Assembly: GCA_002402825.1 (NCBI GenBank)
Contig: DHGP01000027.1
Coordinates: forward strand, 104,307-168,306
Length of the DNA stretch: 64,000 nt
Direction: 5' to 3'
DNA from: Firmicutes bacterium UBA4795
GTDB lineage: Bacteria > Bacillota > Desulfotomaculia > Desulfotomaculales > Nap2-2B
Below the pieces are notes generated by a model, which saw nothing but the letters and a program-made list of their open reading frames with translations, did not search any database and was not told where the DNA came from. The position numbers were made by a program, and so were the translations under genes. Below are positions 17,244-17,532 of this stretch, in pieces (within the stretch, counting starts at the first letter, position 1; each line of letters begins with the position of its first letter).

Positions 17244-17302
17244 AAGATATAAATAAAGCCGCCTATTAATTAAAATTAAATACATAAAATTAATAAACGG
17301 CT
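17244..17302 (-). terminator. intrinsic terminator forming the expression platform of the upstream riboswitch
   Basis: Minus-strand RNA AAGCCGUUUAUUAAUU...AAUUAAUAGGCGGCUU forms a roughly 16-bp stem (including two G-U pairs) followed by UAUUUAUAUCUU. It lies between the aptamer and the hydrogenase start. Confidence 0.6.
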
Positions 17303-17333
17303 TCTAAAATCAGGTAATGCTATGCCTTATCAT

Positions 17334-17423
17334 CTCCTTTCCAAAAGGGAGGCATACCAGTTTCCCAATATACCCTATCGGCCTGGTGCCATAGCTTTAA
17401 GCTTTAGGCAAACAGGCTCGGAG
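17334..17423 (-). promoter_or_regulatory. molybdenum/tungsten cofactor riboswitch (Moco RNA motif)
   Basis: The minus strand reads CUCCGAGCCUGUUUGCC...GGCACCAGGCCGAUAGGG...UGGGAAACUGGUAUGCCUCCCUUUUGGAAAGGAG. The conserved CUCCGAG, GGGAAAC, GCCUCCC and GGAAAGGAG blocks of the Moco motif are in the right order. It is a paralog of 28665-28760. Confidence 0.8.
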
Positions 17424-17532
17424 AATTTTTAAAGATAATTTAAAGTTTTAAAGTTTTAGTTTTTTACTTTTTTCTTTTTTAAAATTAATTCGCCATAAAA
17501 ATTTTAAGTCCTGCTATTTTAAATAAAAAATT

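Follow-up and report, generated by a model that had tools for sequence, protein, structure and literature searches.

A conserved riboswitch of the Mo/W-cofactor class ahead of the genes for a periplasmic [NiFe] hydrogenase

Why would an RNA of the Mo/W-cofactor (Moco) riboswitch class, RF01055 (Regulski et al. 2008; PMC2408646), stand directly in front of the structural genes of a [NiFe] hydrogenase? The typical RF01055 regulon consists of genes for Mo/W transport, for cofactor synthesis, and for enzymes that use the cofactor, and the hydrogenase genes hydS and hydL fall into none of these groups. The locus lies in a window of 64,000 nucleotides (the whole stretch of DNA that was analyzed) from Firmicutes bacterium UBA4795. 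Related loci are designated L001, L002, and so on.

The hydrogenase operon and its leader

The features of the locus, in the direction of transcription, are as follows.

19972-21210 (-), moeA, with Pfam domains MoeA_N/MoCF_biosynth/MoeA_C
18018-19967 (-), moeA-PBP fusion, with Pfam domains MoeA_N/MoCF_biosynth/MoeA_C and PBP_like
17533-18045 (-), hydrogenase maturation endopeptidase, HycI/HybD family (PF01750, TIGR00072), immediately upstream of the leader
17488-17514 (-), candidate hydrogenase-leader promoter, sigma-H-like motif GCAGGA-N17-CGAAT
17318-17435 (-), Moco/Tuco riboswitch aptamer (RF01055), P3-less type, from a 74-bit match and covariation
17324-17332 (-), putative antiterminator 5' arm UGAUAAGGC, directly 3' of P1, from predicted pairing
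17244-17304 (-), expression platform, probable intrinsic terminator (hairpin 17255-17304, tail 17244-17254)
17143-17192 (-), second conserved hairpin, between terminator and ribosome-binding site (-16.4 kcal/mol, z -3.5)
17123-17130 (-), ribosome-binding site AAGGGGGG, read from the sequence
16120-17115 (-), hydS, Tat-exported [NiFe] hydrogenase small subunit (Pfam, TIGR00391)
14646-16094 (-), hydL, [NiFe] hydrogenase large subunit, group 1, NiFeSe-related, Cys form (PF00374, NF033181)

The small subunit contains PF01058 (Oxidored_q6), PF14720 (NiFe_hyd_SSU_C), and a twin-arginine (Tat) motif, RREFIK, and matches TIGR00391 (hydA) at 299 bits, above the cutoff. The large subunit matches PF00374 (NiFeSe_Hases) at 480 bits and NF033181 at 734 bits, above the cutoff, and has the motifs RICGVCP and DPCLACAVH followed by a 15-residue tail. 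The Tat signal, FeS domains, Ni-binding motifs, C-terminal extension, and endopeptidase together identify a group 1 periplasmic [NiFe] hydrogenase. A [NiFeSe] enzyme with selenocysteine (Sec) read-through is ruled out, since the hydL C-terminus, DPCLACAVH, has Cys. The coding strand has no open reading frame of at least 26 amino acids between the aptamer and hydS, as a first-pass annotation of the window had stated when it placed Tat-exported small and large subunit genes next after the RNA; the Pfam domains and RREFIK bear out that gene assignment as well. Downstream of the riboswitch there are only hydS and hydL, and then a HepT/MNT pair, and the operon has no FeS or NrfD subunits of its own. 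The ribosome-binding site is 7 nt ahead of the TTG start of hydS and is identical in L001 and L002, which also keep the stem of the second hairpin. Directly upstream of the endopeptidase gene is a moeA pair (18018-21210; NF011068 at 781 bits), which belongs to the metal-insertion step of Mo/W cofactor synthesis. There is no terminator between the endopeptidase stop codon and the leader, and therefore transcripts reading through from there would also meet the riboswitch.

The aptamer matches the Rfam covariance model RF01055 over its full length (model positions 1 to 135) at 17318-17435 (-), with 74.0 bits (E 5e-16), about twice the gathering score of 36. It is also recovered in a permissive Rfam scan restricted to the leader, and a clade-specific model, R1, scores it at 107.7 bits. 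We conclude that the element is a genuine Mo/W-cofactor riboswitch by its RF01055 match. The interval 17334-17423, where the first-pass annotation had recognized a Moco aptamer, is the core of this match, and the cmscan check was run on both window loci that carry one. The RF01055 core blocks CUCCGAG (P1/J), the GAAA tetraloop on P4, the CCUAAG...UAUGG receptor in P2, and CCUCCC...GGAAAGGAG (P5/P1) are all found in the cmscan alignment, the tetraloop as GGGAAAC and the receptor as CCUAAA...UAUGG, and they are invariant in 16 related aptamers. RNAalifold predicts 28 consensus pairs for this set, and 16 of them, most in P2 and P4, have compensatory double changes; P1, P2, P4, and P5 are all backed by covariation, which, as judged from the alignment, indicates selection on the aptamer structure. 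Other RNA families were rejected, as the permissive scan of 17050-17600 returned only sub-threshold noise (LOOT, 23 bits; JA01, 22.5 bits).

In the alignment the P3 hairpin is missing, with its columns gapped in both window aptamers. P3 was absent from 58 of the 176 original Moco RNA examples, a type referred to as "tungsten-cofactor" (PMC2408646). With no P3 hairpin and with tungsten-related genes in the organism, the hydrogenase aptamer belongs to this P3-less ("Tuco") subtype. The second aptamer of the window precedes such genes.

28596-28844 (-), tup-moa riboswitch unit (promoter motif 28820-28844, aptamer 28651-28771, terminator 28596-28640)

The tup-moa aptamer (28651-28771 [-]) matches RF01055 at 77.6 bits and has the promoter motif AGGA-N17-GAAT ahead of it and a terminator hairpin (-12.7 kcal/mol) followed by UUUAUUUUUUU behind it. 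The genes that follow encode a TupA/TupB-like ABC transporter (in NCBIfam, TupA and TupB rank first or second, with scores under the equivalog cutoffs), moaA, moaC, MOSC, and mobB. Over the core from P1 to P1 the two aptamers share 74% identity, which is about the similarity of the hydrogenase aptamer to its orthologues in more distant genomes. Since this is only orthologue-level identity, "paralog," as the first-pass annotation had it, is a fair description, while "close" paralog is generous.

Conservation of the arrangement among relatives

The RF01055 element lies directly upstream of orthologous hydS genes in about 13 genomes of the Pelotomaculum/Desulfotomaculaceae clade (loci L001 to L008, L010, L016, L040 [P. 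schinkii], and L041/L042). The pairing is kept across four gene neighborhoods: moeA-hycI upstream (window and L001); hypFCDE-hycI upstream (L003, L005, L010, L016, L041, and L042); formate dehydrogenase (FDH) genes upstream on the same strand (L004 and L040); and divergent FDH genes with hycI-hypA downstream (L006 to L008). Aptamers are in tandem in L040, L007, L008, and L010, with the pair in P. schinkii HH located within an FDH-hydrogenase locus. The hydrogenase leader of P. propionicicum MGP has a triple array of Moco, c-di-GMP-I, and Moco elements. P. terephthalicicum JT has a single aptamer in which the P3 hairpin is present, while all other copies are without P3, and one metagenome-assembled genome (L005) has an extra, separate copy before hypA. 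A tRNA-like 3' fragment that was seen by eye in L040 was discarded, as ARAGORN made no call.

No aptamer was found before the hydS paralogs or relatives in L009, L038, and L043 (72 to 78% identical), nor before any of the hydS homologues at ≤71% identity (L011 to L015, L017 to L029, and L044). The riboswitch is therefore not a property of all close hydS homologues. It is also not a consequence of moeA adjacency, because moeA neighbors are confined to the window and L001, nor a general trait of periplasmic hydrogenases, because none of five loci with a Tat-exported [FeFe] hydrogenase and FeS and NrfD genes (P. terephthalicicum, D. gibsoniae, and three metagenome-assembled or metagenome loci) has a Moco aptamer. 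From these comparisons, the link between aptamer and hydS does not appear accidental. The roughly 13 genomes and the compensatory changes strongly support the proposal of the first-pass annotation that hydrogenase expression may be wired to Mo/W-cofactor status.

The layout of the leader, read from the sequences, is common to all orthologues, with the promoter motif upstream of the aptamer and a hairpin and U-rich tail downstream. The motif GCAGGA-N17-RAAT occurs 5 times in the window, compared with 0.34 occurrences expected. The form AGGA-N17(18)-GAAT is found ahead of the first aptamer, at a distance of 26 to 77 nt, in the window, in the tup leader, and in L001, L002, L003, L005 (hypA leader), L006, L008, L010, and L016, and it is also found before hydS leaders that have no riboswitch (L009 and L011). 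The B. subtilis sigma-H consensus is RNAGGAWWW, 11 to 12 nt, and RNNGAAT, and by this consensus the motif is a candidate sigma-H-type promoter.

Expression platform and direction of control

Next after the aptamer come a hairpin of 17 bp with a loop of 16 nt (17255-17304 [-]; -18.9 kcal/mol, z -5.0, with 0 of 200 shuffles as stable) and the U-rich tail UUUAUUUAUAU (17244-17254); the first-pass annotation had described this correctly as a stem of about 16 bp plus a U-run. Measured against the standard of a stable G+C-rich stem, a short loop, and an uninterrupted U-tract, this is a probable intrinsic terminator whose stem is A+U-rich except for GCCG/CGGC and whose U-run is interrupted. A simple terminator scan does not list the hairpin because its loop exceeds 8 nt. 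A hairpin and U-run follow the aptamer in every orthologous leader, in cleaner form in, e.g., L006 to L008 (GGCAUGGCAGUUUUUU), and relative to L002 the hairpin has a compensatory G-C to A-U change. Terminator-type expression platforms are also found in some other members of RF01055.

In the window, if the 3' arm of the terminator is left out of the fold, UGAUAAGGC is predicted to form a duplex with the 5' arm, GCCGUUUAUUA; this duplex is weak (-7.4 kcal/mol) and compatible with P1 forming at the same time. In most orthologues, the predicted partner of the 5' arm is either GGAAAGGAG or the stretch that immediately follows P1 on its 3' side. For 14 leaders we calculated how strongly the terminator 5' arm pairs with the aptamer 3' region and repeated this with shuffled arms; the duplexes (-4 to -8 kcal/mol) are no better than the shuffled ones (z +0.7 to -1.9). 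Polarity therefore cannot be claimed from folding. Of the two alternative structures that the first-pass annotation had suggested folding, the terminator hairpin is found and antiterminator pairing above chance is not.

On balance, we favor a functional P3-less Moco-class riboswitch that works through the terminator, most likely as an OFF switch; the first-pass annotation had allowed for either direction. Transcription would start at the sigma-H-like promoter (17488-17514) and probably also reach the leader by read-through from moeA-moeA-hycI. RNA polymerase would pass the aptamer and then arrive at the terminator (17244-17304), where cofactor binding to the aptamer would determine whether it stops or continues into hydSL. 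When W/Mo-bis-pterin cofactor is plentiful, the terminator would form and the hydrogenase would be held down. When cofactor is short, polymerase would read through, more of the cofactor-independent hydrogenase would be made, and electrons would leave as H2. We propose that the hydrogenase's alternative or partner is the Mo/W-dependent FDH encoded in the same window.

45541-46329, TatC (TatC)
42291-45377 (-), periplasmic selenocysteine formate dehydrogenase alpha subunit (TIGR01553, 931 bits)
41421-42254, FeS subunit (Fer4_11)
40211-41404, NrfD-like subunit (NrfD)

The alpha subunit has TAT_signal and Molybdop_Fe4S4 domains and an in-frame TGA (44748-44750) in the read-through context CARL*HSS. 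With plentiful cofactor, menaquinol-derived electrons would exit as formate through this Sec- and W/Mo-dependent periplasmic enzyme. For P. schinkii, a preprint presents FDH and this hydrogenase as two alternative exits by which menaquinol is oxidized (bioRxiv 10.64898/2026.06.25.734252), and W/Mo depletion is reported, in work cited there, to move syntrophs toward H2.

Several features point toward OFF control. The terminator is wholly outside the aptamer and does not overlap the P1 3' strand, so that a bound ligand has no direct way to sequester it. In both the hydrogenase and the tup-moa leaders, the terminator 5' arm begins 14 nt after the Rfam match; by analogy with the tup-moa leader, which must be feedback-repressed, the common offset favors OFF. 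The predicted pairing of the 5' arm next to or within the P1 region in most orthologues would count in the same direction. No RF01055 match is present in the FDH region of the window, and FDH operons without a riboswitch favor the physiology of an OFF switch.

It is possible, though in our judgment unlikely, that the polarity is the reverse, so that cofactor binding causes read-through and the hydrogenase is made only when the W/Mo FDH can be matured. The two periplasmic enzymes would then be a couple that interconverts formate and H2 or shares HybA/HybB-type membrane modules. This would fit the genomic linkage of the hydrogenase to periplasmic FDH (L004, L006 to L008, and L040), a hydrogenase-FDH complex proposed for Pelotomaculum (PMC8892533), and the FeS and NrfD subunits that are missing from the hydSL operon of the window and present in the FDH operon. 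In addition, no antiterminator comes near the terminator in stability, which makes termination look like the default state, and the putative antiterminator abuts P1, on which it could stack once ligand closes the helix. Against ON control, canonical ON designs have a terminator that overlaps the P1 3' strand, the platform resembles that of the tup-moa paralog, where ON would be positive feedback on cofactor synthesis, and the FDH genes themselves lack riboswitch control. Expression in P. schinkii speaks to both polarities (bioRxiv 10.64898/2026.06.25.734252). Fdn1 and the riboswitch-bearing Hyb1 are both high, which fits ON. In standard medium Hyb1 is at rank 724 and its paralog Hyb2, which has no riboswitch, at rank 3349; for a strict OFF switch, high Hyb1 expression would require free cofactor to remain close to the set point of the switch. 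On mixing, Hyb1 and the FDHs shifted in opposite directions, which counts against ON.

It is improbable that the aptamer is real and irrelevant to hydSL, with a hydrogenase promoter downstream of the terminator or with the element serving as a conditional 3' end for moeA-moeA-hycI or hyp transcripts. About 130 nt, including the conserved second hairpin, separate the terminator from hydS, and a weak sigma-A-like site can be seen there by eye (ATGTCA-N17-TAATAT, 8 of 12 matches, about 17213-17241); the upstream gene is also co-directional in several genomes (hycI and fdnG). Yet no sigma-70-like site passes a scan of 16900-17800, including the part downstream of the aptamer; the weak site lacks conservation in L002, and the conserved promoter motif is upstream of the aptamer. 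Moreover, in L006 to L008, where the gene on the upstream side is transcribed divergently, hydS still has its aptamer, and tandem aptamers before hydS argue for selection on control of the downstream genes.

We regard as least probable of all that P3-less aptamers sense another ligand (metal-free molybdopterin, another pterin, or a redox-linked metabolite), so that the hydrogenase signal would be tied only loosely to W/Mo supply: the ligand of P3-less Moco RNAs was deduced solely from gene associations (PMC2408646), and the P3-containing aptamer at the same place in P. terephthalicicum means that the P3-based Moco/Tuco split maps uncleanly onto the hydrogenase regulon, but the same aptamer type precedes tupABC-moaAC-mobB in the window, a classic target of end-product feedback.

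Comparison with known systems and the choice of electron carrier

The hydrogenase leader is a known riboswitch class with an unusual yet conserved target. It differs from the rest of RF01055 in that its targets are a [NiFe] hydrogenase and, in one genome, Hyp maturation proteins, which neither make, transport, nor use the pterin cofactor. What sets the finding apart is this atypical gene target, a property of the regulon rather than of the RNA. We know of no P3-less Moco RNA for which direct ligand binding has been shown so far.

Full-text literature searches found no paper that discusses a link between a Moco or tungsten riboswitch and a hydrogenase. The link had been called unusual in the first-pass annotation; this agrees with the lack of discussion, although one case was already listed in 2008. 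In S. wolfei, tandem Moco RNAs (Swo-1-8/Swo-1-10) precede, uncommented, genes for NapF-like/[FeFe] hydrogenase large and small subunits and cytochrome b (PMC2408646, Suppl. Fig. S2). As in P. schinkii, the riboswitch is of the Moco class and in tandem, and the operon behind it encodes an outward-facing, quinone-linked hydrogenase; the host is again a syntrophic Firmicute. In contrast, the S. wolfei enzyme is an [FeFe] hydrogenase in the Syntrophomonadaceae, catalogued in the 2008 supplement, and the five related periplasmic [FeFe] operons described above have no Moco riboswitch.

Cobalamin OFF riboswitches repress B12-independent isozymes such as metE and class Ib/III ribonucleotide reductases. 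The proposed OFF logic resembles cobalamin control of metE, in that a cofactor sensor would repress a cofactor-independent replacement of a cofactor-dependent enzyme. It differs in that the replacement would be a different electron-disposal reaction (reduction of H+ rather than CO2) and not an isozyme. Trace-element status also sets the choice among Se-dependent [NiFeSe], [NiFe], and [FeFe] hydrogenases and among Mo/W-dependent FDH isoenzymes in Desulfovibrio, and W/Mo affects Syntrophobacter cocultures; these cases work through protein regulators or by mechanisms yet to be identified, are not known to involve an RNA sensor, and switch between enzymes of the same type.

The conserved arrangement in Pelotomaculum-type syntrophs suggests that cofactor supply helps to decide whether electrons are released as hydrogen or formate. 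Whether degraders of fatty acids, alkanes, and aromatics pass H2 or formate to methanogens is a long-standing open question, and the 2026 P. schinkii preprint calls the switch "flexible" and names no regulator (bioRxiv 10.64898/2026.06.25.734252). A cofactor-sensing RNA between the FDH and hydrogenase genes of a menaquinol-oxidizing locus would offer a concrete mechanism for this choice, testable in three type strains available in culture (P. schinkii HH, P. propionicicum MGP, and P. terephthalicicum JT). Dosing of tungsten, molybdenum, and selenium is also a practical lever in anaerobic digesters. We tentatively suggest that the tungsten-cofactor riboswitch is a molecular selector between formate and H2 as interspecies electron carrier in syntrophic Firmicutes, recruited independently to [NiFe] hydrogenase in Pelotomaculum and to [FeFe] hydrogenase in Syntrophomonas, with a joint c-di-GMP input in P. 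propionicicum. If so, recruitment in Pelotomaculum would include the Hyp maturation genes in some lineages, and the P. propionicicum leader would merge trace-metal status with aggregation or lifestyle signaling (c-di-GMP) to set the carrier. For riboswitch biology, these leaders take the Moco/Tuco regulon past cofactor metabolism, to a respiratory enzyme that does not need the cofactor and to the proteins that mature it, and they also provide new tandem architectures, including a mixed Moco/c-di-GMP array.

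The hyd leader and its gene neighborhood

Scanning the whole window with Rfam at the gathering threshold gives just two matches, both to RF01055, the molybdenum/tungsten cofactor (Moco/Tuco) riboswitch. One precedes the [NiFe] hydrogenase small and large subunit genes, hydS and hydL, and the other precedes a Tup-like ABC transporter in a Mo/W cofactor island further upstream (fdhD, mobB, MOSC, moaC, and moaA).

Elements of the hyd and tup leaders, with sites of a candidate promoter motif
17318-17435 (-): RF01055 aptamer, hyd leader; 74.0 bits, E 5e-16, full length, P3 hairpin deleted
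17255-17304 (-): 17-bp hairpin downstream of the hyd aptamer; -18.9 kcal/mol, z -5.0, 0/200 shuffles equally stable
17143-17192 (-): second conserved hairpin, between terminator and hydS RBS; -16.4 kcal/mol, z -3.5
28651-28771 (-): RF01055 aptamer, tup leader; 77.6 bits, full length, P3 hairpin deleted
12508-12534 (-), 17488-17514 (-), 28820-28844 (-), 46651-46677 (-), 63116-63142 (+), 456-480 (-): motif sites

The first-pass annotation had placed a Moco aptamer at 17334 to 17423, followed by a terminator-like stem with a U-run and then, with no ORF between, by Tat-exported hydrogenase genes, and each of these features is borne out. The RF01055 match is somewhat longer than described, and both it and the tup-leader match exceed the gathering threshold. 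The 17-bp hairpin has the tail UUUAUUUAUAU, and in its stem a G-C pair has been exchanged for A-U, a compensatory change, relative to L002 (L001 to L044 are the compared loci). It lies ~130 nt from hydS, which has the RBS AAGGGGGG and a TTG start codon; the coding strand from aptamer to hydS contains no ORF of ≥26 aa. The second hairpin, whose stem is kept in L001 and L002 and which has no U-run after it, may function in mRNA stability or processing. The twin-arginine signal of HydS reads LGLTRREFIK, and the protein has the Pfam domains Oxidored_q6 and NiFe_hyd_SSU_C; HydL matches NiFeSe_Hases (480 bits) with the motifs RICGVCP and DPCLACAVH. The nearest genome match is Peptococcaceae bacterium SCADC1_2_3 (HydS 93% identical), and by protein homology the source organism is an uncultured relative of Pelotomaculum/Desulfotomaculaceae.

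Upstream of the leader, the same strand carries two moeA genes, one of them a moeA-PBP fusion, and then a gene for a hydrogenase endopeptidase of HycI/HybD type. The protease gene comes immediately after the moeA pair (17533-19967, -); read from its first TTG, it would overlap by as many as 28 nt, while L001 has a gap of ~40 nt instead. In this lineage, a hydrogenase accessory gene thus seems to form part of an operon for Mo/W cofactor insertion. In the window, hydL is followed (12843-13791, -) by a gap of 850 nt and a HepT/MNT toxin-antitoxin pair. The corresponding place is occupied by a Tat-exported [FeFe] hydrogenase and an FeS protein in L001 (10687-13125) and by HybA-like FeS and NrfD-like membrane subunits in L004, L010 (10523-12542), L016, and L040, so the window hydrogenase operon is without its own membrane module. 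A four-gene operon at 40 to 46 kb encodes TatC, a Tat-signal formate dehydrogenase (FDH) alpha subunit, a HybA-like FeS protein, and an NrfD-like membrane protein. The alpha subunit is listed as two ORFs because an in-frame TGA (44748-44750, -; context CARL*HSS) interrupts it; this TGA is the expected selenocysteine codon, so the enzyme requires Se as well as Mo/W. Rfam and clade-specific model scans detected no riboswitch at this operon.

The hyd aptamer is preceded, 77 nt away, by GCAGGA-N17-CGAAT (17488-17514, -), a sequence that occurs 5 times in the window versus 0.34 expected (~15-fold over shuffles), including once before the tatC-FDH operon; a looser AGGA-N17-GAAT is found upstream of the tup riboswitch. 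The motif precedes the first aptamer with equal spacing in most orthologous leaders and also precedes the riboswitch-less hydS leaders L009 and L011. No sigma-70-like site passed the scan in 16900 to 17800. We take the motif to resemble the Bacillus sigma-H consensus, as a candidate lead only, and a stationary-phase or sporulation-linked sigma factor could be common to the hyd, tup, and tatC-FDH operons. With hycI ending ~20 nt short of this motif, any transcript running on from the upstream operon would have to cross the riboswitch as well.

Conservation of the aptamer-hydS arrangement

We scanned 29 genome loci with HydS relatives, the P. schinkii loci, and four metagenomic homologues with Rfam and a clade-specific covariance model. 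Among these, RF01055 is directly upstream of hydS in L001 to L008, L010, L016, and L040 to L042, extending the arrangement to orthologous operons. L016 and L041 have identical model scores and are probably the same lineage.

Gene neighborhoods of aptamer-hydS
Window, L001: moeA-hycI upstream
L003, L005, L010, L016, L041, L042: hypF-C-D-E-hycI upstream
L004, L040: co-directional FDH upstream
L006-L008: divergent fdhE-tatC-FDH cluster; hycI-hypA downstream of hydL

These differing neighbors indicate that the riboswitch tracks hydS and no cofactor gene. P. schinkii (L038) and MAG UBA10960 (L009) each have a second hydSL paralog; neither model detects an aptamer before these or at L043, and none accompanies any HydS homologue ≤71% identical among the loci scanned. 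Among 16 related aptamers, double substitutions preserve pairing at 16 of the 28 consensus base pairs, which shows that the aptamer fold is under selection.

The hyd-leader element clearly belongs to a well-known family of riboswitches: its aptamer is canonical and its platform is of terminator type. Hydrogenases go unmentioned in the main text describing that family, according to which P3-less RNAs ("tungsten-cofactor" type) are associated nearly exclusively with MPT synthesis or with enzymes that use Tuco (PMC2408646). Its list of downstream domains includes none of [NiFe] type, and its Supplementary Fig. S2 gives S. wolfei Swo-1-8/Swo-1-10 as "RNA->RNA->NapF Fe_hyd_lg_C -> Fe_hyd_SSU -> FdnI" (PMC2408646). 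Full-text literature searches found no paper on a Moco/tungsten riboswitch ahead of a hydrogenase. The target, the externally facing [NiFe] hydrogenase of Pelotomaculum-type syntrophs, is unusual, conserved, and amplified, and in one lineage includes maturation genes. The proposed link between hydrogenase and Mo/W-cofactor status stands as a reading of these sequences, with a putative ligand and a polarity that we infer as follows.

Mechanism and polarity

A hairpin and U-run follow each orthologous aptamer, and this conservation, with the compensated stem, makes transcription attenuation the likely mode of control. We lean toward an OFF switch, in which cofactor binding causes termination and the hydrogenase would be a cofactor-independent fallback. 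The probable terminator is wholly outside the aptamer, so ligand binding could not sequester it, and its 5' arm begins 14 nt past the Rfam match, as in the tup-moa paralog, for which end-product repression is expected. OFF is also favored by folding predictions made without the 3' arm, in which the 5' arm pairs with nucleotides immediately 3' of P1 (window, L003, and L005 to L008); in L004, the best antiterminator duplex uses the conserved GGAAAGGAG itself. Of the alternative folds envisaged at first pass, the terminator is stable, but the predicted antiterminators are weak and no better than shuffled controls, and that of the window is compatible with P1. These last points limit OFF to slightly better than an even chance and leave ON, in which binding gives read-through and would tie the hydrogenase to its FDH partner, as a less likely but sizable alternative. 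The closest functional analogue of the hyd leader is the B12 riboswitch that represses B12-independent isozymes.

Among syntrophic propionate oxidizers, Pelotomaculum alone is reported to have group 1a [NiFe] hydrogenases in the periplasm, adjoining periplasmic FDH (PMC8892533). The P. schinkii Fdn-Hyb locus is described as offering two alternative pmf-consuming exits for menaquinol electrons, formate or H2; Fdn1, Hyb1, and Hyb2 have expression ranks of 224, 724, and 3349; and mixing raises Hyb1 and lowers FDHs (bioRxiv 10.64898/2026.06.25.734252). The same preprint, which names no regulator, also cites a shift of syntrophs toward H2 upon W/Mo depletion. By gene context, L040 (P. schinkii HH) is this locus, with fdnG on one side of its tandem riboswitches and the hydrogenase genes on the other. 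That Hyb1 is well expressed in standard medium speaks mildly against a tight OFF switch, although it would be compatible with OFF if the tup-moa riboswitch holds free cofactor near its set point.

Multiplied and variant aptamers

Besides the tandem pair of L040, the clade model finds three copies in L007 and two in L008, the extras being degenerate. These (L007:7382-7491, L007:7711-7799, and L008:3362-3450; 38, 21, and 23 bits) occupy the stretch from the intact aptamer to hydS, each with its own hairpin and U-run, and the last copy is a mini version with P2 nearly deleted (TCTGTTCTCCGGTCCCGATGGCCAGGGGAGTGTCTGGAAACGG...). P. propionicicum MGP (L010:7388-7801, NZ_QFFZ01000009.1) has a series before hydS.

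Aptamers of the L010 series
7388-7510: RF01055, 72 bits
7521-7611: c-di-GMP-I, RF01051, 62.7 bits
7683-7801: RF01055, 60 bits

The first two are just 10 nt apart and so may share a single terminator, and the array would be a mixed-ligand tandem on a hydrogenase operon. The MAG locus L005 has an additional RF01055 (250-364) before hypA (496-909), with its own AGGA-N18-GAAT motif and terminator CUUUGUCC/GGACAAAG; the genes behind it are hypA, a Mrp/NBP35-type ATPase gene, and hypF...hycI, so both maturation and structural hydrogenase genes lie behind Moco-type riboswitches there. The P. terephthalicicum JT hyd-leader aptamer (L003:7659-7788) has a P3 hairpin (ATGGCCGCCGGCCAT), while all other hyd-leader copies are P3-less; if P3 separates Moco from Tuco specificity, this operon would be linked to another metal form.

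Another strong RF01055 (L001:13381-13503, 84.6 bits) precedes ORFs 13932-14570 and 14542-16995, encoding a 212-aa protein without a Pfam match and a secreted protein of >817 aa, which may be further uncharacterized members of a tungsten-cofactor regulon. The interval between fdnG and the riboswitches in L040 (6900-7340), in which ARAGORN called no tRNA, contains an apparent C-terminal remnant of a hycI-type protease gene and a tRNA-like 3' end (GGTTCGAATCCCACCCTCTCCGCCA) and may be debris of a rearrangement that united the FDH and hydrogenase operons.
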